Positions 1 through 57,710 of a stretch of DNA of 64,000 bases are shown piece after piece (position 1 is the stretch's first letter; every line of letters starts with the position of its first letter). The notes under the pieces were generated by a model. That model made no database searches and had not been told where the DNA came from. It saw only the letters and a program-made list of their open reading frames with translations. The DNA lies in contig JACOYB010000009.1 of NCBI GenBank assembly GCA_016182085.1, positions 1,393-65,392 on the forward strand, written 5' to 3'. The position numbers and the translations under genes were made by a program. Source of the stretch: Candidatus Magasanikiibacteriota bacterium. Its GTDB lineage: Bacteria > Patescibacteriota > Patescibacteriia > Magasanikbacterales > GWA2-37-8.

Positions 1-692
1 GCAGCACTGATAATTTTGATGAAGTAGTAAAGGAATGTCTGTTGCTTACCGATGGCGATTGTATTGGCGCAGGCAGTGTATTGTCTGTAATATCCCAGCC
101 AAACAGTGGTGCTCCCGTGGCCCGCAATAAAGGTTTTGCTATGTCCAAAGGTGAGTATGTAATTTTTTGGGATGCAGACACCTTGGCTCATCCGCAGATG
201 CTGCAAAAAATGTTTGCTTATTTACAAAAACATCCGGACGCAAGTTATGCCTATAGCCAATTTAAATTTGGCTGGAAAACCATAAAAAGCCGGCATTTTA
301 ATGCGGATAAATTAAAACAAGTAAATTATATAGACATCACCTCGCTTATCCGCCGTTCCACCCTCAATTGTCATCCTGAACAAAGTGAAGGATCTCTGTC
401 CAGTAACGCTGTCATTCCGACCGCAGTGGAGGAATCCCTTTCGCGCACGTCTTGTCCTTTCGACGTACACTTAAAACGTTTCCAAGATTGGGATCTGTGG
501 CTCACAATGTTAGAACAAGGTAAAACCGGAGTTTTTATCCCCGAAGTCCTCTATGAAAAAGTTGTAGGCAGCAGAGAAGGTATAAGCACATGGTTGCCAA
601 GCTTCATGTATCAATTGCCATGGAAGACCAAGCAGGTTAAAAAATACGAAGAAGCCAAACAAATTATTATAAAAAAACACCATCTGTCCTAA
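1..692 (+). CDS. Family 2 glycosyltransferase, 5' end truncated by window edge; carries an in-frame hairpin-repeat insertion at about 366-466
   Basis: Reading frame is open from nt 3. GT2-like motifs are present (STDNFDEVVKE, DGDCIGAG, ...VIFWDADT...). The segment 'NCHPEQSEGSLSSNAVIPTAVEESLSRTSCPFDVH' is encoded by the dispersed 'gtcatcctga…gaaggatc' repeat. Confidence 0.7.
   Translation, partial: STDNFDEVVKECLLLTDGDCIGAGSVLSVISQPNSGAPVARNKGFAMSKGEYVIFWDADTLAHPQMLQKMFAYLQKHPDASYAYSQFKFGWKTIKSRHFNADKLKQVNYIDITSLIRRSTLNCHPEQSEGSLSSNAVIPTAVEESLSRTSCPFDVHLKRFQDWDLWLTMLEQGKTGVFIPEVLYEKVVGSREGISTWLPSFMYQLPWKTKQVKKYEEAKQIIIKKHHLS
366..466. repeat. Dispersed hairpin repeat (gtcatcctga…gaaggatctctgtc family), two tandem arms, inserted in-frame in the GT2 gene
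   Basis: Sequence 'ttgtcatcctgaacaaagtgaaggatctctgtcc…gtcattccgaccgcagtggaggaatcccttt' matches the other copies listed below. Confidence 0.7.
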
Positions 693-699
693 CTGTCAT

Positions 700-740
700 C
701 CCGAGCGAGTCCGTAGCCGACGAGGGATCTATACCTATTA
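700..740. repeat. Solo copy of the hairpin repeat (ctgtcatcccgagcgagtccgtagccgacgagggatct)
   Basis: Same core 'tgtcatccYga…gggatc' immediately after the GT2 stop codon. Confidence 0.6.
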
Positions 741-918: not shown

Positions 919-1263
919 ATGAACCTAGAAGAAATCCAGAAAAAAATAATTGCCTTTCGCGATGCGCGTGATTGGAAGCAGTTTCATACGCCAAAAGACA
1001 TGGCCATTTCTTTGGCGTTAGAAGCGGCCGAAGTATTAGAACATTTTTAATGGAAAAACGAAGCAGAAATTGCCGAGTATTTAAAAACTAACAAAGAAGG
1101 TATCGCCGATGAACTGGCCGATGTTCTGTGGTGGGTGTTGCTTATGTCCCATGATTTGGGTATTGATATTTTAGAAGCATCGGAAAAGAAGATAGAAAAA
1201 ACTGCGTTAAAGTATCCGGTGGAGAAATCCAAAGGTAAACATACAAAATATACGGAGTTATAA
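919..1263 (+). pseudogene. MazG-like nucleotide pyrophosphohydrolase (YpjD-like) interrupted by an in-frame TAA at 1048-1050
   Basis: Translation: MNLEEIQKKIIAFRDARDWKQFHTPKDMAISLALEAAEVLEHF*WKNEAEIAEYLKTNKEGIADELADVLWWVLLMSHDLGIDILEASEKKIEKTALKYPVEKSK… This is the typical MazG pattern (RDW..FH.PK…E.GEL.E.FQW…ELADVL). The stop sits exactly where the conserved Gln (CAA) of 'FQW' is expected. Confidence 0.6.
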
Positions 1264-1464: not shown

Positions 1465-1662
1465 ATGATAGTAAAAAGAAAAAAAGGATATTATGTCCTA
1501 TCCGTCCCGACTTTGCCTTTGGCGGCAAAGTCGCGGATCCGCGATTTTGCTCGAGGCAAAATCGGGAAAAAAACCCGCAAAAACCTAAGCGGGCCATACA
1601 AAACCCGCGCCGAGGCGATTAAACGGCTAGGGCAGGTTGAGTTTTTTAAGCATAGGAAATAG
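1465..1662 (+). CDS. Small basic protein (65 aa), paralog of the 2914..3048 ORF, containing a 63-bp palindromic insertion (1504-1566)
   Basis: DNA is about 85% identical to 2914..3048 outside the insert. The insert 'gtcccgactttgcctttggcggcaaagtcgcggatccgcgattttgctcgaggcaaaatcggg' is three consecutive palindromes and is in frame (21 codons). Confidence 0.4.
   Translation: MIVKRKKGYYVLSVPTLPLAAKSRIRDFARGKIGKKTRKNLSGPYKTRAEAIKRLGQVEFFKHRK
1504..1566. repeat. 63-bp triple-palindrome mini-insertion
   Basis: cgacttt/aaagtcg, cgcggatccgcg (perfect palindrome), gattttgc/gcaaaatc around ctcgag. It is absent from the paralogous copy at 2914..3048. Confidence 0.6.
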
Positions 1663-2913: not shown

Positions 2914-3048
2914 ATGATAGTCAAACGCAAACAAGGATATTATGTCCTGTCCAAAAAAACCCGCAAAAATCTAGGCGGGCCATACAAAACCCGCGCCGAG
3001 GCGGTCGCACGCTTGCGGCAGGTTGAGTTTTTTAAGCATGCGAAATAA
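2914..3048 (+). CDS. Small basic protein (44 aa) immediately upstream (5 nt) of the DpnI-like gene; paralog of 1465..1662
   Basis: MIVKRKQGYYVLSKKTRKNLGGPYKTRAEAVARLRQVEFFKHAK. Not in the ORF track (below size cutoff). Found because it is a direct DNA repeat of 1465..1662. Confidence 0.4.
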   Translation: MIVKRKQGYYVLSKKTRKNLGGPYKTRAEAVARLRQVEFFKHAK

Positions 3049-3053
3049 ACTTT

Positions 3054-3824
3054 ATGAATTTATCTTTTGAAACAAAATTAGCCGATAAATATACAAGTTC
3101 CTCTCAAAAAATAAGAGTTTTGACAGAGGATTGGGTGGATAGACAAGTTTATTGTCCAAATTGTGGATATTTGGATATTGATAAATATAAAAACAATAAG
3201 CCGGTGGCTGATTTCTTTTGCTCGAATTGCAGAGAAGATTATGAATTAAAAAGTAAAAAAGATTCTGTCGGGACAAAAATAGTTGATGGTGCTTACAAAA
3301 CAATGATTGAAAGATTACAAAGTACAAATAATCCCAATTTTTTCCTACTCAACTATGATTTACGAGATTTTTCCGTTTTGAATTTTTTCGTTATTCCAAA
3401 ACATTTTTTTGTTCCAGATATTATTGAAAAGCGTAAGGCATTATCGCAAACAGCAAGACGGGCCGGTTGGATTGGTTGTAATATCTTACTGAAAAGTATA
3501 CCTGAAAGTGGGAAAATATTTTATATTAAAAATGGAAAAACTGAAGAGAAGGATAGGGTGCTTAAAAGTTGGCAAAAAACCTTATTTTTAAGAGAAGAAA
3601 AAGAAATTGCGACAAAAGGCTGGTTGCTTGATATAATGCGATGTGTTGAGAGTCTTGGGAAGAAAGAATTTGTGCTTGACGATATCTATACTTTTGAAAA
3701 AGAATTAAGTAAACTACATCCCGAAAACAAACATATTAAAGATAAAATGCGTCAGCAATTACAAATATTGCGAGATAAAGGGTATTTGGAGTTTGTGGGC
3801 AGGGGAGTTTATAGGACAAAGTAG
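3054..3824 (+). CDS. DpnI-family (type IIM, methyl-directed GmATC) restriction endonuclease
   Basis: Catalytic triad at DpnI positions D53/E64/K66, 'VADFFCSNCREDYELKSKK'. A four-Cys cluster (C34,C37,C56,C59) is present. C-terminal 'IKDKMRQQLQILRDKGYLEFVGRGVYR' resembles a winged-helix domain. Length 256 aa matches DpnI. Confidence 0.75.
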   Translation: MNLSFETKLADKYTSSSQKIRVLTEDWVDRQVYCPNCGYLDIDKYKNNKPVADFFCSNCREDYELKSKKDSVGTKIVDGAYKTMIERLQSTNNPNFFLLNYDLRDFSVLNFFVIPKHFFVPDIIEKRKALSQTARRAGWIGCNILLKSIPESGKIFYIKNGKTEEKDRVLKSWQKTLFLREEKEIATKGWLLDIMRCVESLGKKEFVLDDIYTFEKELSKLHPENKHIKDKMRQQLQILRDKGYLEFVGRGVYRTK

Positions 3825-5164: not shown

Positions 5165-5233
5165 CATGTCAAATACTACCCCAGTAGCAGGTTGCGCGGC
5201 AATCGCTACGGGGCGAGCACCCCCACAAATTAT

Positions 5234-6004
5234 ATGTCTGAGTATTATACAGCTCAACGCACTAAAAATATCTACGACCCCCTAAAGCACGGCAAGCCGG
5301 CTTCAGGGCAAGCCTTCAAACTCTCTCGCTCAAAGATAGATCTTTTTTTAAACTGTCCTCGCTGTTTTTATTTTGACCGCCGCCTCGGTGTCGGTCGGCC
5401 GCCGGGATTTCCTTTTGCCCTCAATTCGGCTGTGGATCATCTTTTGAAGTTGGAATTTGATATACATCGCGTAGCTGGCACCAAGCATCCTTTGATAGAA
5501 AAATATGGTGTAGATGCTATGCCTGTGGCTCACAAAGACTTGGAACAATGGCGACATAACTTTACCGGTATTCAATATCTGCACGAATCCACCAATTTAT
5601 TGGTATTTGGCGCGATAGACGACCTTTGGCAGAACTCCAAAGGCGAGTATATTGTGGTGGATTACAAAGCTACCTCCAAAGACGAAGCCATTATCGAGCT
5701 CAACAAAGAATGGCAGATTGGGTACAAACGGCAAATGGAAGTTTATCAGTGGCTGCTACGCCAGAACGGCTACAAAGTATCCGACACTGGTTATTTTGTC
5801 TATTGCAACGGCCAGACAGACCGCAAAGCTTTTGATGGCAAGTTAGAATTTGATGTTACTTTAATTTCGTACAAGGGCAATGATTCTTGGGTGGAGAAGG
5901 CGATAAAAGACGCGCACAAATGTTTGAACAGTGATAAGATACCTAAATCAGGTTCGGAGTGCGATTATTGCAGTTATGTAGCGGCGATAAATAGTAAAGA
6001 GTAA
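5234..6004 (+). CDS. PD-(D/E)XK nuclease, Cas4/RecB-like, with a CxxC…CxxC cysteine cluster
   Basis: 'IDDLW…EYIVVDYKATSK' carries the D/ExK motifs. N-terminal 'CPRCFYF' and C-terminal 'ECDYCSY' cysteine pairs are present. G+C is somewhat above the flanks. The in-frame upstream extension to 5192 is probably not translated. Confidence 0.55.
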   Translation: MSEYYTAQRTKNIYDPLKHGKPASGQAFKLSRSKIDLFLNCPRCFYFDRRLGVGRPPGFPFALNSAVDHLLKLEFDIHRVAGTKHPLIEKYGVDAMPVAHKDLEQWRHNFTGIQYLHESTNLLVFGAIDDLWQNSKGEYIVVDYKATSKDEAIIELNKEWQIGYKRQMEVYQWLLRQNGYKVSDTGYFVYCNGQTDRKAFDGKLEFDVTLISYKGNDSWVEKAIKDAHKCLNSDKIPKSGSECDYCSYVAAINSKE

Positions 6005-7851: not shown

Positions 7852-8222
7852 ATTGTCATCCTGAGCAGAGCGAAGGATCTCTGTCCGTTATATTATGCCA
7901 AATCACAATTATTATGTTTATATAATAGCCAGTGTAAGTTTCGTATTATATATAGGAGTAACAAATGACCTTATTAGAAGAGTTGAAGAACATAAGGATG
8001 GAATTGTTGATGGTTTTACTAAAAAGTATAAATGTAAAAAGTTAGTTTATTATGAAAGTTTTTTTCATGTGGAGGATGCTCTTAAAAGAGAAAAAGAATT
8101 AAAAGGTTGGAAAAGATTTAGAAAAGTTAATTTAATAAATATTGGTAATTCGCGGTGGGTAGATTTGTATGATCAACTTACGAGTTGAGACAGAGATCCT
8201 TCACTGCGTTCAGGATGACAAA
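7852..8222. mobile_element. Candidate minimal element: GIY-YIG gene bracketed by 33-bp terminal inverted repeats
   Basis: Left arm at 7853-7885 is 'ttgtcatcctgagcagagcgaaggatctctgtc'. Reverse complement of 8189-8221 is 'ttgtcatcctgaacgcagtgaaggatctctgtc'. Identity is 26/33, and all differences fall in the central 7 nt. The ORF 7895..8188 fills the interior with gaps of 9 nt or less. Confidence 0.5.
7895..8188 (+). CDS. GIY-YIG nuclease family protein (UPF0213/YhbQ-like)
   Basis: YYVYIIAS…LYIGVTNDLIRRVEEH is the GIY-YIG signature. Confidence 0.65.
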   Translation: MPNHNYYVYIIASVSFVLYIGVTNDLIRRVEEHKDGIVDGFTKKYKCKKLVYYESFFHVEDALKREKELKGWKRFRKVNLINIGNSRWVDLYDQLTS

Positions 8223-8227
8223 CTACT

Positions 8228-8470
8228 ATGTATTATGTATATATCCTGGAATGCGTAGACAAAACATTGTATACTGGTATAGCTACGGATTTAGCGCGCA
8301 GGGTAAAAGAACATAATACCTCCAAATTGGCGGCCAAATATACCCGCGGTCGCCGGCCGGTAAAAATTGTTTATACAAAGAGGTTTCGCAATCGGTCTAA
8401 TGCTTCTAAGGCCGAAGCCAGGATAAAGAAAATGACGAGAAAAGAGAAGTTGAAGTTAAGCATAGAATAA
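8228..8470 (+). CDS. GIY-YIG nuclease family protein (second tandem copy)
   Basis: MYYVYILEC…LYTGIATDLARRVKEH. Confidence 0.7.
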   Translation: MYYVYILECVDKTLYTGIATDLARRVKEHNTSKLAAKYTRGRRPVKIVYTKRFRNRSNASKAEARIKKMTRKEKLKLSIE

Positions 8471-8546
8471 ATTTGTCATTCCCGCCGGAGCGGGAATCCA
8501 GACAATTGTATTGGATACTGGATTCCCATTGCGATGGGAATGACAA
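8471..8546. repeat. Hairpin repeat, subfamily B ('gtcattccc…gggaatccag.caattgt.tggattccc…gggaatgacaa')
   Basis: Near-identical architecture at 55165-55232. Overlaps the annotated 5' end of the helicase ORF. Confidence 0.65.
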
Positions 8547-8575
8547 CCGAGAGAATAAATAATTTCTTAAACTGT

Positions 8576-10234
8576 ATGACTCAAGAGCAAGCGCTGGACA
8601 TACTTAAAACCGGCGCTAATGTTTTTTTAACCGGCGAACCTGGAGCGGGTAAGACGCATACTATAAACGAGTATGCGCGTTATTTGCGTGCCCGCAACAT
8701 AGAGCCATCTATTACCGCTTCTACCGGTATTGCGGCTACGCATTTGGGCGGAATGACCATTCATTCTTGGAGCGGTATTGGCATACGTAAATATTTGGAT
8801 GGGTATGAATTAGATAAAATAAGCTCTACTGAATATCTTGCCAAACGCATTCGCCGGGCGAAAGTATTAGTAATAGACGAAGTGTCCATGTTATCTCCCG
8901 AAACACTGGATATGGCTGACGCGGTGTGCCGCAACATACGTCAAAATGGCGATGCGTTTGGCGGTTTGCAAATTATTTTTGTCGGTGATTTTTTTCAGTT
9001 GCCGCCGGTTGTAAAAAATGAGAATAATTCACAATTACAAACTTCGCTACTTCAGAATAATAAACCCAGGTTTGCCTACGCTTCATCTGCTTGGCAAAGA
9101 GCCAAGCCTGTAGTTTGTTATCTTACCGAACAGCACCGTCAGGATGATGATATATTTTTACAAATTCTTTCGGCGGTTCGGGCTAATACTGTTAATAATG
9201 ATCACTTGTCTGAAATTGAAAAAAGAAAAGTACGCGATGAAAATTTCGCCAGTAAAGCTGTAAAATTATATACCCATAATATAGATGTGGATCGCACCAA
9301 TGATGCCATGCTTGCCACGGTTGTAAACAAACCAATGACGTTTGAAATGACAAGTAAAGGTTCGTCGGCGCTGGTGGCCACTCTTCAAAAAGGTTGTTTG
9401 TCGCCATCTAGTTTAATACTAAAAGTTGGAGCCAAAGTTATGTTTACAAAAAATAATCCTAAAGAAGGCTTTGTAAATGGAACATTGGGAATTGTGGAAG
9501 GGTTTGAACGATATATGAATTTGCCAATCATTCGCACTCATGACGGCCGGCAAATTATGGTAGAAAAAATGGAGTGGAGTGTGCAAGAAAACGGTAAGGT
9601 GCGGGCCGAGATCTCGCAGATTCCATTACGTTTAGCCTGGGCTATAACCGTGCATAAAAGCCAAGGAATGAGCCTGGAAGAAGCGGTAATGGACCTAAGC
9701 GACGTATTTGAGTTTGGGCAGGGATATGTGGCTTTGTCGCGCGTACGGCGCCTAGCCGGCCTGTATTTATTGGGTTGGAATGAGCGGGCGTTTCAGGTGC
9801 ATCCGGAAGTACTAGAAAAAGACAAAGATTTTAGGGTTAGTTCGGAGGCAAATGTAAATGTGTTTTCCGGTATTCCCAAAGAAGAACTAAGTAAGATGCA
9901 TAAAAATTTTGTTAAAGCGTGTGGGGGAGATGAAGTTGATTTGAGTTTGCAAACAGGTGAAGACGATGCACAATACGAACCTATTACTCGCCAAAATTAC
10001 GCAGAAGGATTAGGAAAGAAAAAGAAACCAAAAGCAAAAGGGTCTGGTTACGCAAAAATCAGGGAAAAGCATCCAAATGCGTATAAATCATGGAGTGCAG
10101 AGCAAGACGAAGAATTGAAACAGTTTTTTGCGAGCGGCGTACCCATTGAACAGCTCGCGGAAACATTTGGACGTAAAGAAGGCGCTATATCTATGCGGTT
10201 GATTAAATTGGGACTTATGGAAGGGGAGTTATAA
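8576..10234 (+). CDS. PIF1/RecD-like P-loop DNA helicase with a C-terminal HTH-like tail
   Basis: Walker A 'GEPGAGKTH'. 'IIFVGDFFQLPPV' is the PIF1 signature. C-terminal 'WSAEQDEELKQFFASGVPIEQLAETFGRKEGAISMRLIKLGL' resembles a sigma-70 region-4 HTH. The upstream in-frame extension to 8534 is encoded by the repeat. Confidence 0.7.
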   Translation: MTQEQALDILKTGANVFLTGEPGAGKTHTINEYARYLRARNIEPSITASTGIAATHLGGMTIHSWSGIGIRKYLDGYELDKISSTEYLAKRIRRAKVLVIDEVSMLSPETLDMADAVCRNIRQNGDAFGGLQIIFVGDFFQLPPVVKNENNSQLQTSLLQNNKPRFAYASSAWQRAKPVVCYLTEQHRQDDDIFLQILSAVRANTVNNDHLSEIEKRKVRDENFASKAVKLYTHNIDVDRTNDAMLATVVNKPMTFEMTSKGSSALVATLQKGCLSPSSLILKVGAKVMFTKNNPKEGFVNGTLGIVEGFERYMNLPIIRTHDGRQIMVEKMEWSVQENGKVRAEISQIPLRLAWAITVHKSQGMSLEEAVMDLSDVFEFGQGYVALSRVRRLAGLYLLGWNERAFQVHPEVLEKDKDFRVSSEANVNVFSGIPKEELSKMHKNFVKACGGDEVDLSLQTGEDDAQYEPITRQNYAEGLGKKKKPKAKGSGYAKIREKHPNAYKSWSAEQDEELKQFFASGVPIEQLAETFGRKEGAISMRLIKLGLMEGEL

Positions 10235-25013: not shown

Positions 25014-26330
25014 ATGAATAACCCAGAAAATCCTCAAGAATTATTAGAATGCTTTGACGAACAAGGTGTTATTATCGAGCCTCATACCCGTACGGAAGTG
25101 CATGCTAAGCCTTTACAGTATTGGCACGGTGTCGTCAATGTTTGGCTTGTAAATAGCGCTGGTGAGTTGCTATGCTCAAAACGTGCCGAAAATTTGTCTG
25201 GCAATCCGGGGAAATGGCAAACTTATTTTGGCGGACATATAAAAGCCGGGAAAAGTTTTAAAGAAAATGCGGTGTTGGAATTAAATGAAGAGGCGGGTGT
25301 AGAGATTGATCAAAATAACTTATTTTTAATTGCAAAAGGTACGAACGATGCGGATAAGCATTATTTTGAAAGTTATGCGTATTTATTTAATGGTTCAGTT
25401 AATGATTTGAAATTTAATGATGGAGAAGTAACTGAAGCCAGGTGGTATACAATGGGCAATTATTGGGCAGAAAGAAATAAAAATTTAGAAAATTGGTGCA
25501 ATGGCTGTAAACCTGAGAATCAGGAATTGATTAAAAATTGGTTAGCCTTAAGTACACAAATTTTAGGTATAAATGTTAGCAATATATCTAAAAAAAGTGC
25601 TTTGGAAAAAGTAGTTGAGTTTTTAAAATCGGATAATCAATATAAAATATTTACACCAAATCCGGAAATGGTAGTAAAAGCACAAAAAGACGAATATTTT
25701 AAACAAGTTTTAAATAGCGGTGATTTGAATTTGTGTGATGGTATGGGCCTGCAGATTTTTACTGGAATAAAACGAATTCCAGGTGTAGATTTTATGTTAG
25801 AAGTTTGTAAGTTAGTGGCGGAGCAGGGGAGAGGAGTCTATTTATTGGGTTCTGGAAATGACAAGGTGGTACAAGGTGCTTGCCAAGAGTTAAGCAAAAA
25901 ATTTCCTAATTTAAAAATATCTGGGTATAACAAAGGGCCGGTATTGCAAGAGGTTTGTCATTCTGAGCAGAGCGAAGAATCCCTCTTGTCCGAACGAAAG
26001 GGATCCTTCACGTCCGTTCAGGATGACAGCGTTATTGTAAATGAGATTAATCAATCTGGAGCGGCAGTTTTATTTGTCGCCTTTGGCATGGGTAAGCAAG
26101 AAAAATGGATTTATGAAAATTTAAGCAAAATGCCGAATGTAAAAGTGGCTATGGGAGTGGGTGGAGCATTTGATTTTATATCTGGAAAAATAAACCGCGC
26201 CCCTTTATTTTTACGTAAGTCTGGGTTAGAATGGGTCTATCGTTTGATCCGGGAACCAAAGCGAATCGGCAGGATTTTTAACGCGACTATTAAATTTTGC
26301 TACCTGGTATTTAAGAGAAAAATATTATAA
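25014..26330 (+). CDS. Fusion: N-terminal Nudix-like domain (degenerate box) plus C-terminal WecB/TagA/CpsF (GT26) glycosyltransferase; carries an in-frame hairpin-repeat insertion
   Basis: Nudix-like 'GGHIKAGKSFKENAVLELNEEAGV' (REx2EE reduced to LEx2EE). GT26 motifs 'NPEMVV…CDGMGL…', 'LLGSGNDKV' and 'GVGGAFDFISGKINRAP…WVYRLIREPKR'. Repeat-encoded segment 'CHSEQSEESLLSERKGSFTSVQDDS' (nt 25955-26032). Confidence 0.6.
   Translation: MNNPENPQELLECFDEQGVIIEPHTRTEVHAKPLQYWHGVVNVWLVNSAGELLCSKRAENLSGNPGKWQTYFGGHIKAGKSFKENAVLELNEEAGVEIDQNNLFLIAKGTNDADKHYFESYAYLFNGSVNDLKFNDGEVTEARWYTMGNYWAERNKNLENWCNGCKPENQELIKNWLALSTQILGINVSNISKKSALEKVVEFLKSDNQYKIFTPNPEMVVKAQKDEYFKQVLNSGDLNLCDGMGLQIFTGIKRIPGVDFMLEVCKLVAEQGRGVYLLGSGNDKVVQGACQELSKKFPNLKISGYNKGPVLQEVCHSEQSEESLLSERKGSFTSVQDDSVIVNEINQSGAAVLFVAFGMGKQEKWIYENLSKMPNVKVAMGVGGAFDFISGKINRAPLFLRKSGLEWVYRLIREPKRIGRIFNATIKFCYLVFKRKIL
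25955..26032. repeat. Hairpin repeat (back-to-back arms) inserted in-frame in the Nudix-GT26 gene
   Basis: 'tgtcattctgagcagagcgaagaatccctcttgtccgaacgaaagggatccttcacgtccgttcaggatgacag'. Confidence 0.7.
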
Positions 26331-27310: not shown

Positions 27311-28828
27311 ATGATCAAAACCCGTTTTGCACCCAGCCCCACCGGATATTTACATGTAGGAGGTCTACGCACCGCTTTGTATTCATATTTATTTGCCAAA
27401 AAACATGGTGGTAAATTTTTGTTGCGCATAGAAGATACGGATAGAGAAAGGTATGTGGCCGACGGCGTGGCAAATATTTTAAAATCACTGTATTGGGCAA
27501 GTGTTGTGCCCGATGAGGGTGTCATCCTGAGTGAAGCGAAGGATCCCTCTCGTTCGGATAAAAGGGATTCTTCGGCAAAGCCTCAGAATGACAATTTGCG
27601 AATTACTCAAAAGGGTGAAAATGGACCATATACACAATCAGAACGTTTAGATATATATAAAGAATACGCACAAAAGTTACTTGATGCTGGACATGCATAT
27701 TATTGTTTTTGCAGCTCCGAAAGATTAGAAAAATTACGAGCCGATCAACAGGCCAAAAAAATGCCAACGGGCTACGATGGTCTTTGCGCAAAACTTGACC
27801 CAACAGAGTCTAAACAAAAAGCAGAGGCAGGAGAAAAACATGTAATGAGACTTAAAATGGACAAGCACGGCGAAACTGTTTTTAATGATTTGATTCGCGG
27901 AGAAGTGCGTTTTAAAAATGAATTGGTAGACGATCAGGTACTAATAAAATCAGATGGTTTTCCTACTTATCATTTTGCGGTGGTGGTAGATGATCATTTA
28001 ATGGGTATTACCCATATTATCCGCGGCGAAGAATGGATAAGCAGCGTGCCAAAGCATGCTCAACTATATAAATACTTTGGTTGGGAAATTCCCGAGATGG
28101 CTCACTTGCCACTATTGCTTAACCCAGATAAATCCAAGCTCAGCAAACGCCAAGGTGATGTAGCTGTAGAAGATTATATGAAAAAAGGTTATTTACCAGA
28201 AGCGCTGGTAAATTTTGTGGCATTTTTGGGTTGGAATCCGGGCACAGAAAAAGAAATGTATACAATGGAAGAATTAGTTAAAGATTTTGATTTAGCCAAA
28301 GTCGGTAAAACCGGCGGGGTTTTTAATATTGAAAAATTAGATTGGTATAACAAACAATATATTAAAAATTTATCCAACGCAGAGTTGGTAGAAAAAGCCA
28401 TGCCTTGGCTGGAAGAAGCGGGGGTAGGCGGCCGTCCAATTCTAGAGAAAGCCGTGTCATTGGAAAGAGAAAGAATTACAATTTTGTCCGAATTGCCGGA
28501 AGCAATTAAATTTGTTTTTGAGCTGCCAGATTATAAAGCTGACACACTAGTCTGGAAAAAAAGTTCAAACGAAGAGGTAAAAAATATTTTGCCAAAACTT
28601 ATAGAATTTTTTGATACAGTTGATGAAAACGATTGGGATAAACAAGTTTTAGAAGAAAAAACCAAAATTTGGATAGCTGAGAAAGGATTCTCTGTTGGTT
28701 CTGTACTCTGGCCAATGCGCGTGGCATTATCTGGACAAGAAAACTCCCCGGGTCCTTTTGAAATTGCCGAAGTTTTAGCCAAAAAACAAACAATTACAAG
28801 ACTTCAAATTGCCTTAGAAAAGTTATAG
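27311..28828 (+). CDS. gltX: Glutamyl-tRNA synthetase with an in-frame hairpin-repeat insertion (nt 27518-27596)
   Basis: 'RFAPSPTGYLHVGGLRTAL' HIGH region and 'KLSKR' KMSKS variant. The insert 'VILSEAKDPSRSDKRDSSAKPQNDN' lies between the conserved '…DEG' and 'PY.QS.R' positions. Confidence 0.85.
   Translation: MIKTRFAPSPTGYLHVGGLRTALYSYLFAKKHGGKFLLRIEDTDRERYVADGVANILKSLYWASVVPDEGVILSEAKDPSRSDKRDSSAKPQNDNLRITQKGENGPYTQSERLDIYKEYAQKLLDAGHAYYCFCSSERLEKLRADQQAKKMPTGYDGLCAKLDPTESKQKAEAGEKHVMRLKMDKHGETVFNDLIRGEVRFKNELVDDQVLIKSDGFPTYHFAVVVDDHLMGITHIIRGEEWISSVPKHAQLYKYFGWEIPEMAHLPLLLNPDKSKLSKRQGDVAVEDYMKKGYLPEALVNFVAFLGWNPGTEKEMYTMEELVKDFDLAKVGKTGGVFNIEKLDWYNKQYIKNLSNAELVEKAMPWLEEAGVGGRPILEKAVSLERERITILSELPEAIKFVFELPDYKADTLVWKKSSNEEVKNILPKLIEFFDTVDENDWDKQVLEEKTKIWIAEKGFSVGSVLWPMRVALSGQENSPGPFEIAEVLAKKQTITRLQIALEKL
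27518..27596. repeat. Hairpin repeat (back-to-back arms) inside gltX
   Basis: 'gtcatcctgagtgaagcgaaggatccctctcgttcggataaaagggattcttcggcaaagcctcagaatgacaa'. Confidence 0.7.
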
Positions 28829-38852: not shown

Positions 38853-39797
38853 TTATTTTTCAAATAACGGATGAAAATCATGGTGTGTTTTTTCTGCAAA
38901 TTTATCGGAAGCATGCACATAACGAGTGGTTGTGTCTAGAGATTCATGTCCCAAAAGTATCTGAATCGCTGCCGGATTAGCCCCGTTTTCAGCCAAATAA
39001 GTGGCAAAACCATGTCTTAGCGTATGCGCGCTAATCGGAAGGTTTATATCTAGTAATTCTCGATATTTTTTTATTTTAAATTGTAAATAGTTAGTTGAAA
39101 TTTTTTTATTTTTTTCATTATTATTTCGGCCGCGGTAGGGGACAAATAGCATTTCAGAAGTGCTGTTGCGTTTTGCCATGTAATTTTTTAAATGAGTAAC
39201 AGCTCTAGGGGTTAAATAGGCAAAGCGCTGTTTTTTACCTTTCCCAAGTATGTAAACACGTCCGGTTTGATCAATCTGGTTAACTTTTAGCGACAATAAT
39301 TCTGATATACGCATGCCGGTGGCAAATAATGTTTCTAACATAGCGCGATTGCGCAAAGCCACACGCTCGTCATCCTCATATTTCATCGGAGCTTCAATGA
39401 TTTTTATCAACTCTCCAAATTCAGGAATTTGCGCGTGTTTTTTTATATTTTTTATTAGTTTTACGGCGCCGGATGAAACAGGCGGATCATGATCCATATC
39501 TTCCATAAATTTTAAGTACGATCGGAGGGCTGACAGCATTCGATTTATGGAATAGCTGCTTAATTTTTTATTTGTTTTTTCCCCGGAAACAGATGTTTTG
39601 CGATCAGATGACGCCAAGTAGGCTTTATAGCGTAAAATATCAGTTTTATTTATTCTGTTAAAGGGTGTTTTTATATCTTCGTTTAAAAAAGTTTCAAAAG
39701 TATTTAAATCGCGTTCATAGTTATACGCAGTTTCTTCCGAGAAGTTATTTGCTTTTAAGTTTAAAATAAAATCATCTAAATAGGGAAGTTGGTTCAT
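38853..39797 (-). CDS. Tyrosine site-specific recombinase (XerC/XerD/phage-integrase family)
   Basis: 'HTLRHGFATYLAENGANPAAIQILLGHESLDTTTRYVH' carries the R..H…R..Y catalytic signature; N-terminal core-binding domain. Confidence 0.8.
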   Translation of the reverse strand: MNQLPYLDDFILNLKANNFSEETAYNYERDLNTFETFLNEDIKTPFNRINKTDILRYKAYLASSDRKTSVSGEKTNKKLSSYSINRMLSALRSYLKFMEDMDHDPPVSSGAVKLIKNIKKHAQIPEFGELIKIIEAPMKYEDDERVALRNRAMLETLFATGMRISELLSLKVNQIDQTGRVYILGKGKKQRFAYLTPRAVTHLKNYMAKRNSTSEMLFVPYRGRNNNEKNKKISTNYLQFKIKKYRELLDINLPISAHTLRHGFATYLAENGANPAAIQILLGHESLDTTTRYVHASDKFAEKTHHDFHPLFEK

Positions 39798-54692: not shown

Positions 54693-55109
54693 TTATGGTA
54701 ATTTACGATACTTTTTTACAACTTTTAATTTATTTAATTCCCTATCAATAACAGCTTGCAGCTTAGCATAATCCACGTCTTGCGCGTTTTTAAGGTTTGC
54801 CATCTGCTCTTCGGCTCTGGCCCGCGCTTCTTCGGCTTTATCTATATCTATTTCGGCCACTCTCTGCGCGTGATCTGCCAAAATTACAATTTCATTTTTG
54901 CCTCTTACTTCCAAAAATCCTCCGGAAACCGCCATCTGCTGCTGGCCTTCTTTATCCTTAAATTTTAATTCACCGGCTTTGAGAACAGAGATAAGCGGAA
55001 TATGATTTGGCAGAACCGTAATCTCACCCTCCATAGTAGGAATAGTAACTTGAAAAATTTCATTTTCGTAAATTGTTTTTTCCGGTGTTACGATTTTGAA
55101 TTTTAACAT
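54693..55109 (-). CDS. atpC: F-type ATP synthase epsilon subunit
   Basis: Beta-sandwich plus helical hairpin; operon position. Confidence 0.8.
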   Translation of the reverse strand: MLKFKIVTPEKTIYENEIFQVTIPTMEGEITVLPNHIPLISVLKAGELKFKDKEGQQQMAVSGGFLEVRGKNEIVILADHAQRVAEIDIDKAEEARARAEEQMANLKNAQDVDYAKLQAVIDRELNKLKVVKKYRKLP

Positions 55110-55119
55110 AAGTTTTTAG

Positions 55120-55300
55120 TTTGTCATTGTGACTACAACCTTTTGGTCTACACGTTCCCGTAGTTGTCATTCCCATCGAAATGGGAATCCAGTCGACAAT
55201 TGTCTGGATTCCCGCTTTGGCGGGAATGACAATATATGGACAAAGATTCCTCACACAAGAGCCTGCCCTGAGCTTGTCGAATGGGTTCGGAATGACAGTG
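55120..55300. repeat. Cluster of hairpin repeats (subfamily B plus partial copies) between atpC and atpD
   Basis: 'gtcattcccatcgaaatgggaatccagtcgacaattgtctggattcccgctttggcgggaatgacaat', plus flanking 'ttgtcattg…' and '…ttcggaatgacag'. Confidence 0.65.
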
Positions 55301-55304
55301 AATG

Positions 55305-56708
<1,404 letters not shown>

Positions 56709-56725: not shown

Positions 56726-56802
56726 TTGTCATCCTGAACGGAGTGAAGGATCTCTTTTGTTCGGACTGGAGGGATTCTTCGCAAAGCTTCAGAATGACAA
56801 TT
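56726..56802. repeat. Hairpin repeat (back-to-back arms) between atpD and atpG
   Basis: 'ttgtcatcctgaacggagtgaaggatctcttttgttcggactggagggattcttcgcaaagcttcagaatgacaa'. Confidence 0.7.
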
Positions 56803-56810
56803 GAAAAAAT

Positions 56811-57710
56811 TTACTCTAGCGCCATTGCCCCACCGGCGATTTCTGCAATCTCTTGGGTGATGCCCGCTTGTCTGGCTTTATTAAATGTTAGATTCAGTTC
56901 GCTTATCATATCTTTGGCTGCTTCGGATGCGTTTTTCATAGCTACCATGCGGCTGCTATGTTCGCTGGCCGAAGATTCTAACATTGTTTGATAAATTTGG
57001 GTTTCTACCAGTCTTGGTAAAATTATTTTTAAAACATCCAGTCTATTTGGCTCAAATAAATAATCAGTTAGATTATTTTTAACAACAGTTTTATCATCAG
57101 ACAATTCGGTTATCTCGGCTAGAGTTTTTTCCAAATCCGATTCGGATATTGGCAAAACTTGTCTTAGTCTGGCTGTTTGCACCAGCGCTGATTTAAAATC
57201 CGTATAAGCGACAATTACTTTGTCATAGGATTTCTTCTCATAAGCATCTATTACCATTTTGGCAATTGGCAGCGCGTCGTCAAAATTTGGCGTATCAGTC
57301 ATGTTGGTAAAGGCAGCGGTAAGATTGTAGCCCATTTTTTTGGCAAAATCAGCACCTTTCTTACCAATACCAACTACATCAACCGCGGCTTTTTCTCTAG
57401 TCATTTGCGCGGCTGTTTTCTTGATAATATTGGCATTAAAACTGCCGCACAAACCGCGATTAGAGGTAATAATAATCATTAGGATTTTTTCTACTGGCCT
57501 GGTAGCTAAAAGCGGCACTTGTTCTTTTTGAGTTTTGGAAAGATCAACCAAAAGTTCCCAAGCCAAACCGGCATAGGCGCGCGTGTCTATAGCCGCGTTT
57601 ACCGCTTTGCGCATTTTGGCAGCCGCAATCATCTCCATGGCTTTGGTAATTTTTTTGGTACTGCCAATGGATTTGAGACGACGCTTAATTACTTTTGTAT
57701 TAATTGCCAT
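56811..57710 (-). CDS. atpG: F-type ATP synthase gamma subunit
   Basis: Terminal coiled-coil helices; operon position. Confidence 0.85.
   Translation of the reverse strand: MAINTKVIKRRLKSIGSTKKITKAMEMIAAAKMRKAVNAAIDTRAYAGLAWELLVDLSKTQKEQVPLLATRPVEKILMIIITSNRGLCGSFNANIIKKTAAQMTREKAAVDVVGIGKKGADFAKKMGYNLTAAFTNMTDTPNFDDALPIAKMVIDAYEKKSYDKVIVAYTDFKSALVQTARLRQVLPISESDLEKTLAEITELSDDKTVVKNNLTDYLFEPNRLDVLKIILPRLVETQIYQTMLESSASEHSSRMVAMKNASEAAKDMISELNLTFNKARQAGITQEIAEIAGGAMALE

Follow-up and report, generated by a model that had tools for sequence, protein, structure and literature searches.

The 64,000-nucleotide stretch analysed here, from contig JACOYB010000009.1 of a Candidatus Magasanikiibacteriota bacterium (hereafter, the window), carries many short hairpin repeats that begin with the tag GTC and lie both between genes and, in frame, within them. 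We consider it likely that they are repeats of the kind represented by dRS3, RPE-4, RPE-6 and the Neisseria Transformation Sequence (NTS), that they reside near a candidate nuclease of the Ssn type, encoded by a small GIY-YIG gene (giy1), and that the copies inside genes are tolerated passengers. The motif GTCATYCYGA is found 14 times on the two strands of the window, against 0.25 matches expected from dinucleotide-preserving shuffles, and none of 100 shuffles attained 14.

A first-pass annotation of the window had proposed a single repeat family with two subfamilies (A and B), present in the genes for a family 2 glycosyltransferase (GT2) and a NUDIX–WecG protein as well as between genes, and adapted to give translatable peptide. 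We inspected all copies with their flanks. Each position that it listed contains a repeat copy, and the copies in GT2, in NUDIX–WecG and between the atp genes bear out a single family with both genic and intergenic members. Subfamilies A and B both exist, although their number exceeds two: there are also long-loop variants (695–729, 1285–1318 and 55245–55296) and a family C of the form GTCCCGA...GGATC. The two genic hosts stand as well, but the list was incomplete, since the gene for glutamyl-tRNA synthetase (GluRS) is a third composite-bearing gene (27521–27592); a fourth in-frame insert, of the third repeat family, is found at 1504–1566. The repeats, the GIY-YIG genes and the truncated GT2 host are the following:

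3–692, plus strand: GT2 glycosyltransferase host gene (Pfam PF00535 and PF10111), its 5′ end cut by the window edge
370–394, plus strand: subfamily-A hairpin unit GTCATCCTGAACAAAGTGAAGGATC in the GT2 open reading frame (ORF), read as (C)HPEQSEGS, without counterpart in GT2 homologues
411–436, plus strand: second unit GTCATTCCGACCGCAGTGGAGGAATC in the GT2 ORF, oriented as the first, read as VIPTAVEES
695–729, plus strand: intergenic long-loop unit directly past the GT2 stop codon
1267–1444, plus strand: intergenic cluster (truncated head at 1267; long-loop A, 1285–1318; family C, 1341–1366; unit, 1419–1444)
1504–1566, plus strand: family-C palindromic dimer of 63 nucleotides, in frame in a small ORF (1465–1662); the paralogue at 2914–3048 is the empty site
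7855–7879, plus strand: left subfamily-A unit beside giy1
7895–8188, plus strand: giy1, a 97-residue single-domain GIY-YIG protein, candidate Ssn-type partner of subfamily A (Pfam PF01541 only, 1.4e-13)
8195–8219, minus strand: right subfamily-A unit beside giy1, inverted
8228–8470, plus strand: giy2, an 80-residue GIY-YIG protein of UPF0213/YhbQ type, in tandem with giy1 (Pfam PF01541, 3e-17)
8475–8544, no strand assigned: subfamily-B inverted dimer of two dRS3/NTS-like units, immediately past giy2 (single-stranded DNA fold −21.3 kcal/mol, z = −6.6)
25957–26027, minus strand: subfamily-A composite of 71 nucleotides, in frame in NUDIX–WecG (25014–26330), read as CHSEQSEESLLSERKGSFTSVQDD
27521–27592, plus strand: subfamily-A composite of 72 nucleotides, in frame in GluRS (27311–28828), read as VILSEAKDPSRSDKRDSSAKPQND
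55166–55230, no strand assigned: subfamily-B inverted dimer in the atpC/atpD gap (fold z = −6.0)
55245–55296, minus strand: long-loop unit GTCATTCCGA...GAGGAATC in the atpC/atpD gap
56728–56798, plus strand: subfamily-A composite of 71 nucleotides in the atpD/atpG gap (fold z = −2.5)

Pfam places atpC (54693–55109), atpD (55305–56693) and atpG (56811–57710) all on the minus strand, and supports the host genes as GT2 and as NUDIX plus WecG/TagA/CpsF (GT26). The window holds no tRNA genes. A CRISPR array was ruled out, as the spacing of the copies in the window is irregular.

Repeat anatomy and known relatives

Each unit consists of an unpaired (T/C)GTC tag, an AT-first stem, a short loop and a return arm, followed by ATC. 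Every window copy has the tag, an AT-first stem and a C past the palindrome; in each of them a T precedes GTCAT, and in most copies from other genomes a T or C does so. The subfamily-A unit is (T)GTC-AT-YCY-GA-(short inner stem and loop)-GA-RGR-AT-C, with AT first, nine stem positions and loops of 3–4 or up to about 30 nucleotides. Subfamily B is TGTCATTCCC-N8-GGGAATCCAG, with an 8-bp stem (ATTCCCGC/GCGGGAAT), a 4-nucleotide loop and a CCAG tail. Two inverted units and a short conserved spacer make up an oriented composite of 64–96 nucleotides, an architecture like that of REPINs or of miniature inverted-repeat transposable elements. The A copies at 27521–27592, 25957–26027 (reversed) and 56728–56798 are one and the same oriented composite, in which a left unit (GTCATCCTGA..GAAGGATC) and an inverted right unit (GATTCTTC..TCAGAATGAC) enclose the conserved centre CYCTYTYGTTCGGAYNRRAGGG. 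As CCT/AGG invariably forms the left arm and TCT/AGA the right, it is a heterodimer. B units form inverted dimers at 8475–8544 and 55166–55230.

Folded as single-stranded DNA and compared with shuffles, the A composites reach z = −2.0 to −3.6, and the B dimers −6.0 and −6.6. Among 60 distinct A units of many genomes, 94% of the stem cells are paired (84% in shuffles) and 58 are altered on both sides (14 ± 8 in shuffles), while in a control with the partner slid by 1–3 columns only 19–51% pair. These 58 double changes stand against 4 one-side changes, and nearly all are full Watson–Crick swaps with few G-U intermediates. In a set with three variable stem positions left free, the arms are complementary in 248 of 258 units, which comprise nine stem variants. 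The pairing of the arms of A units is under constraint and is kept by compensatory change.

This anatomy can be set beside the CGTC-tagged superfamily of repetitive extragenic palindromic sequences (REPs; tag often TGTC) described by Di Nocera, De Gregorio and Rocco in 2013 (PMC3733652). Those REPs have stems of 8–9 bp starting with A-T and T-A pairs, loops of 4–5 nucleotides, a CCA tail and frequent inverted dimers, and they include Neisseria dRS3 and Rickettsia conorii RPE-6 (both CGTC-1) and RPE-4 (CGTC-4). Over half of their intragenic copies are dimers encoding 20–30 residues, tRNA synthetases included; a dedicated transposase was not found, and the hosts were Proteobacteria, Chlorobi, Bacteroidetes, Spirochaetes and Thermotogae (PMC3733652). 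The window repeats share with them the (C/T)GTC tag, the AT-first stem and the inverted dimers, often heterodimers, together with a short loop and a 3-nucleotide tail that subfamily A matches only in part. They too are mostly intergenic with a minority in frame in genes, a tRNA synthetase among these. B units fit dRS3 exactly in their 8-bp stem, 4-nucleotide loop and CCAG tail, and the defining pattern of dRS3, ATTCCC-N8-GGGAAT, occurs in four exact matches in the window (8478, 8522, 55169 and 55208). The window differs in its host, a bacterium of the Candidate Phyla Radiation, and in having a GIY-YIG gene flanked by units, where the 2013 paper (PMC3733652) reported no dedicated enzyme. In-frame dimers in tRNA synthetases are already known from that work. 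What is new is the host phylum, the extension of subfamily A to at least 12 phyla, and a GluRS codon that bears one and the same element in lineages that are not sisters.

A second framework is that of the Ssn nucleases (Chenal et al. 2025, PMC11893778). The NTS, with its 28-nucleotide consensus CGTCATTCCCGCGMAVGCGGGAATCYRG, contains the dRS3 pattern ATTCCC-N8-GGGAAT, and broader "Ssn-related motifs" (SRM) have also been defined. SsnA, a single-domain GIY-YIG nuclease of 94 residues, binds and cuts NTS and SRM as single-stranded DNA only, not as RNA; its gene is usually flanked by repeats, and cutting is governed by the three bases that precede the palindrome, binding by a C directly past it (PMC11893778). 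All window units have the GTC upstream of the hairpin and ATC after the stem, with its C directly past the palindrome. The repeat–gene–repeat arrangement around a small GIY-YIG gene (94 residues in SsnA, 97 in giy1), the hundreds of dispersed copies in some genomes and the wide phylogenetic spread are likewise shared. Unlike the Neisseria system, the window has two different tandem GIY-YIG genes, one of UPF0213 type. A word search of the text of Chenal et al. (PMC11893778) gave no mention of intragenic or in-frame copies, nor of Patescibacteria.

Two further systems offer partial parallels. The Rickettsia palindromes of the RPE-1 type (Ogata et al. 2000 and 2002, summarised in PMC10969869) are described as selfish DNA lying in frame in many unrelated housekeeping genes and apparently compatible with their fold and function. 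The in-frame palindromes of the window also sit in housekeeping genes and are apparently compatible with the fold, whereas RPE-1 (PMC10969869) measures about 100–150 bp, encodes a longer conserved peptide and is confined to Rickettsia. Ten translated window inserts, searched against NCBIfam at E up to 10, hit none of its families, in a library whose RPE content is unchecked. The REPINs and their RAYT partners (PMC3116915, PMC5581495) resemble the window repeats in their inverted doublets of tagged hairpins, short spacer and long persistence in lineages, and in a resident partner gene that is flanked by the same hairpins, apparently single-copy and vertically inherited. However, REPINs carry the tag GTAG, are essentially extragenic and have an HUH tyrosine transposase as partner, in contrast to GTC and GIY-YIG here.

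Subfamily A is widespread. Scanning 596 Gb for the pattern GTCATYCTGAR-N7-GAAGRATC, for which we calculate about 35 chance matches under uniform base composition, gave at least 120 matches, and 80 records among the matches listed span at least 12 phyla. These listed matches come from Acidobacteriota, Chloroflexota, Bacteroidota (Ignavibacteriales, Kapabacteria, Rhodothermales), Bacillota, Patescibacteria, Verrucomicrobiota, Planctomycetota, Cyanobacteria, Gemmatimonadota, Fibrobacterota, Omnitrophota, Nitrospirota, Synergistota and Pseudomonadota, a spread that exceeds the five phyla given in 2013 for CGTC-tagged REPs. The unit was also found on 51 viral contigs. Regular arrays of subfamily A occur on IMG/VR contigs, with five copies about 87 nucleotides apart in one (L019:8595-8969) and four in another (L036:8924-9389).

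GIY-YIG genes beside the repeats

giy1 sits between two inverted A units, 7855(+) and 8219(−), which is the published repeat–gene–repeat arrangement. The B dimer at 8475–8544 adjoins giy2, whose product matches PDB 1ywl (8e-17) and 1zg2 (1e-16). We ran tblastn with giy1 on loci that had been retrieved solely for holding the repeat, and homologues turned up in 4 of the 171 loci that the unit scans yielded and in 9 of the 120 from the composite scan. Inverted units lie on both flanks in 12 of 15 loci with a giy1 homologue; among the flanked genes are some from Ignavibacteriales, Mucilaginibacter and Alphaproteobacteria, and others on several unclassified metagenome contigs. One locus (L229) has two giy1-type copies whose flanking units and near-gene sequence are identical and whose wider surroundings differ.

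The order TspO, RF-1-domain gene, giy1, (giy2), PIF1 helicase is common to four genomes, the window and three related Magasanikbacteria, and in all three relatives giy1 again lies between inverted units. The ratio of non-synonymous to synonymous substitution rates (dN/dS) of the window gene against each orthologue is 0.09–0.12, at a dS of about 0.8–0.9. giy1 behaves as a resident, vertically inherited gene under purifying selection, as RAYTs do for REPINs. No HUH, Y1 or insertion-sequence transposase was detected with Pfam in roughly 60 long ORFs of the window; the sole recombinase among the scanned ORFs is Xer-like (38853–39797).

Some observations concern the surroundings of this pair. In one relative (L297:6001-6324), the giy1 ORF runs into the right flanking unit (...LDRDPSLRSG*), so that the repeat provides its stop codon. 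The longest ORF of the PIF1-like helicase begins at an ATG within the B dimer (8534–8605, MGMTT...), and its true start is probably further downstream; Di Nocera et al. had warned of N-terminal overlaps of ORFs with such repeats (PMC3733652). A few kilobases upstream of the GIY-YIG pair are genes for a DpnI-like restriction enzyme of the Dam-replacing family (3054–3824) and a PD-(D/E)XK nuclease (5192–6004), and in the same relative (L297:1-1054) a DpnI fragment lies beside an N6/N4 methyltransferase. This region may be a small variable defence region.

Genic copies as insertions in intact genes

Comparison with orthologues, which lack the inserts, identifies the genic copies as insertions. 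They are read in frame as extra segments, as the first-pass annotation had held: the ORFs run through them free of stops, and against homologues they appear as additional loop segments. GluRS gained about 19–20 residues relative to orthologues 76–85% identical and to T. thermophilus GluRS, whose alignment reaches residue 71 and resumes at 75, with query residues 72–101 unmatched. The closest of 120 homologues (76–85% identical outside the loop) have a loop 19–20 residues shorter, and in the orthologue at locus L173 the DNA is continuous through the site and insert-free. In the alignment of WecG with TagA (5wb4) there is a gap of 22 residues, and the segment is lacking in the syntenic orthologues of L173 and L174. 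For GT2, almost every one of the 150 best representatives aligns in two separate stretches, to query residues 26–119 and 150–228, and alignment A1 has about 29 extra residues; this insert was placed by the representative-library search, the PDB alignment being too weak for placement. The GT2 frame across the units 370–394 and 411–436 gives NCHPEQSEGSLSSNAVIPTAVEESLSRTS, the same peptide that the first-pass annotation had quoted, and one relative (P0133) has VIPTVVEESLS at the site that matches the second unit. The family-C dimer, tail-to-tail and beginning with GTC, is a clean 63-nucleotide insertion into a small basic ORF (MIVKRK.GYYVLS...) compared with the paralogous empty site 1.4 kb away, without visible target duplication.

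The GluRS motifs HIGH (HVGG) and KMSKS (KLSKR) are intact. Its AlphaFold model, built with 45 sequences, has a mean pLDDT of 90.9 and falls below 50 only in insert residues 82–91, the tip of a protrusion between strands 69–75 and 96–101. Misassembly is unlikely because the GluRS insert is reproduced in the independent assembly of locus L172, and in-frame composites were seen in 22 independent metagenome contigs. An intein or intron was ruled out, as features of either are lacking and the inserts have merely 19–29 residues. Stop-codon reassignment as the cause of the open frames was ruled out too, as TAA, TGA and TAG all terminate ORFs in the window.

An identical GluRS codon carries the same composite in the window (27521–27592) and in L172 (L172:255-323, protein P0014), with a centre 3 nucleotides shorter in the latter. 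Outside the loop, P0014 is 75.6% identical to the window protein and the insert-free P0002 85.2%, and a neighbour-joining tree sets the window GluRS and P0014 apart. Around the insert (windows starting at codons 50–90), nucleotide identity to the window gene is 0.80–0.93 for L172 and 0.50–0.76 for L173 (L173:10001-11464); at codons 120–170 and 230–280 it is 0.59–0.81 for L172 and 0.77–0.91 for L173, and over much of the remaining gene the two are about equally similar to the window. The shared element suggests, from these sequences, either a patch of recombination across lineages or two insertions at one site. The loop is also a recurrent target: a longer variant is found seven codons downstream in P0046/L174, and P0030, P0036 and P0113 have other inserts in it.

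Genic copies are depleted overall. A units lie in ORFs of at least 200 codons in 58 of 307 cases (19%, versus 69% of random sites), and scan-derived composites in ORFs of at least 150 codons in 22 of 92 (24%, versus 65%). With the copies of the window, L172 and L174 added, the count becomes 26 of 97 (27%, versus 65%); the unbiased figure is 24%, as the four composites added were genic beforehand. In the window itself, 4 of 10 repeat loci are genic at a coding density of 88.5% (binomial P = 3e-4).

Other features of the host loci were noted. The NUDIX–WecG fusion (25014–26330) is confined to the window genome, and the syntenic orthologues are WecG alone (L173:9001-9726 and L174:9265-10008; 241 and 247 residues). 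The GT2 loop was struck repeatedly, with inserts in P0123, P0133 and P0166 too. Between the GT2 gene and the first intergenic cluster, a MazG-like or dCTP-pyrophosphatase-like ORF (919–1263, plus strand) has an in-frame TAA at 1048–1050 across which the Pfam domain continues. Homologues (4qgp, 6sqw) have Gln there (F-Q-W), so that a single CAA-to-TAA change is enough; it could be a pseudogene, a sequencing error or a case of read-through, and TAA otherwise serves as a stop in the window.

Mechanism, alternatives and meaning

By analogy with SsnA of N. meningitidis, we hypothesize that giy1 binds the single-stranded hairpin and cuts a few bases upstream of the tag. Acting in trans, this resident gene with its vertical inheritance would spread or maintain units and composites, as single-copy RAYTs do for REPINs. 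The nuclease activity of giy1, the assignment of the GIY-YIG genes to subfamilies and the chemistry of transposition are all inferred. New copies would arrive mostly between genes, and those within genes would persist only where the frame is kept, no stop falls in frame and the loop tolerates 20–30 extra residues. Such a survival filter would account for the intact GT2, NUDIX–WecG and GluRS genes.

Several points weigh against this reading of the repeats as NTS-kind elements with a giy1 partner. The published SRM pattern gives no match in the window, and the two of its four B units closest to the NTS differ from it by 2 and 4 substitutions, mostly in the loop and first base, beyond the one-mismatch tolerance. 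Subfamily A departs from the CGTC-tagged REPs with its 9-position stem, two conserved G·A mismatches, loops of 3–4 nucleotides or far longer, and a tail of CTC or CCC after ATC instead of CCA. Because of the two G·A mismatches, lone A units show no advantage over shuffles when folded with DNA parameters (z about 0). The three window A composites differ visibly among themselves in loop and centre sequence, and none of the A composites offers an empty site for comparison, the sole resolved one belonging to family C. NCBIfam gave no match for giy1 or giy2, and the pairing of giy2 with subfamily B is adjacency within this window only. giy1 is syntenic and resident, so that its synteny is no sign of recent mobility in this lineage. 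To our knowledge, GIY-YIG nucleases are not established as catalysts of transposition.

A bolder version, which we regard as possible although rather unlikely, is that hairpin composites and GIY-YIG nuclease form a partnership like that of REPINs and RAYTs, driven by a nuclease for single-stranded DNA in place of an HUH transposase. The element shared at one GluRS codon by two non-sister lineages would then have arisen by nuclease-driven, homing-like copying to a directed site or by lateral spread, through recombination, of some 70 nucleotides into an essential gene. If true, the repeats would be a distinct class of mobile DNA, able to pass between related genomes within coding sequence.

Somewhat more doubtful is that the hairpins serve mainly the host as regulatory elements (RNA stabilisers, attenuators or DNA-structure sites that tune, for example, the atp cistrons), with their spread a by-product and the GIY-YIG neighbour incidental. 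Two sites do lie between cistrons of the atp operon, classical REPs are mostly downstream of ORFs and thought to be RNA elements (PMC3733652), and composites fold stably (z = −2 to −6.6). The region of a B dimer (8457–8565) weakly matches the Wolbachia small RNA model WsnRNA46 (25.5 bits, E 0.13, gathering score 65.3); as Wolbachia is a genus rich in related repeats, a repeat of this kind may underlie the model. Rfam gave nothing at gathering thresholds, and in E-value mode only this hit and mir-515 (E 0.13), both sub-threshold and at chance level. The same elements also lie within coding sequence, in four genes, and no regulatory role is evident there. The excess of full Watson–Crick swaps over one-side changes and G-U intermediates, the binding of the motif by SsnA as DNA and not RNA (PMC11893778) and the recurrence of the GIY-YIG link across phyla also speak against it. 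A regulatory role is nevertheless compatible with the reading of the repeats as NTS-kind passengers.

We find it very unlikely that, as the first-pass annotation proposed, selection shaped the family to encode a peptide in one frame or more, be it harmless or useful, enabling it to colonise coding sequence. What invites that proposal is four stop-free, in-frame inserts in 64 kb, the 26 of 97 composites in long ORFs across independent assemblies (four known genic copies included), the hydrophilic character of the encoded segments, and a GluRS insert that keeps its frame despite the 3-nucleotide indel between the window and L172. However, 92 metagenome composites have on average 1.59 stop-free frames of six, fewer than composition-matched shuffles (1.93 ± 0.11; lowest of 200, 1.61). 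Composites are less translatable than random sequence because their conserved termini bear TGA in one frame per strand. A lone A unit leaves four of the six frames open, also with TGA in one frame per strand, which is the chance level for 8 codons. Intergenic copies are not richer in open frames than genic ones, and the depletion of the latter is about 2.5- to 3.5-fold.

Nor do genic composites favour a frame or orientation. Four of the six classes are used (11, 7, 4 and 4 copies) and none is preferred; the three window genes show three different combinations of orientation and frame (VIL..QND in GluRS; CHS..QDD in WecG, from the reverse element; CHP.. and then VIP.. in GT2). Lengths modulo 3 are unconstrained in intergenic composites (23, 28 and 20), whereas in genic ones they track which terminal frames are open; the census, being based on ORFs, is blind to copies that destroy (pseudogenise) genes. 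The pattern is that of a selective filter, not of design: it is what is expected if selection were to remove insertions that shift the frame, add a stop or fall in structured regions.

It is still less probable that these are ordinary REPINs that owe their mobility to a RAYT, an HUH tyrosine transposase of IS200/IS605 type, whose gene lies in some other part of the genome. The inverted doublets and the lack of target duplication at the one resolved site do resemble REPINs and IS200/IS605, and only 64 kb of the genome is covered. On the other hand, the tag is GTC and not GTAG, the Y1 transposase domain is absent from all scanned window ORFs, and the flanked neighbour is a GIY-YIG gene, not a RAYT, in 12 of 15 loci; CGTC-type repeats were also reported in 2013 to be without RAYT partners (PMC3733652). 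Finally, that the genic copies are assembly artefacts or marks of pseudogenes is hardly credible: short-read assemblies do break at repeats, giy1 contigs of other samples end at one, and the neighbouring MazG-like ORF has its in-frame stop, but the GluRS insert was found again in an independent run and assembly (L172), GenBank has the same gene annotated (P0001, 507 residues, 100% identical over the 505 compared), all three host ORFs are intact and retain catalytic motifs as well as full-length domain matches, and the GluRS model is confident outside the insert.

Taken together, an oddity of raw sequence can be tied to both the CGTC-tagged REPs and the Ssn nucleases, and it extends each of these published frameworks. 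It places such repeats and a candidate nuclease in the Candidate Phyla Radiation, whose genomes are very small and where even an essential tRNA synthetase has an insert, and reveals a subfamily-A unit almost unchanged in at least 12 phyla. Since the SRM pattern misses the window copies, present counts of Ssn-related motifs are probably too low. For annotation, the elements explain recurrent low-complexity segments (VILSEAKD, CHPERSEGS, SLRMT and similar) and many spurious small ORFs. There is also a clear negative, in that the repeats show no sign of having evolved to be translated; those inside genes are more likely passengers that their hosts tolerate.

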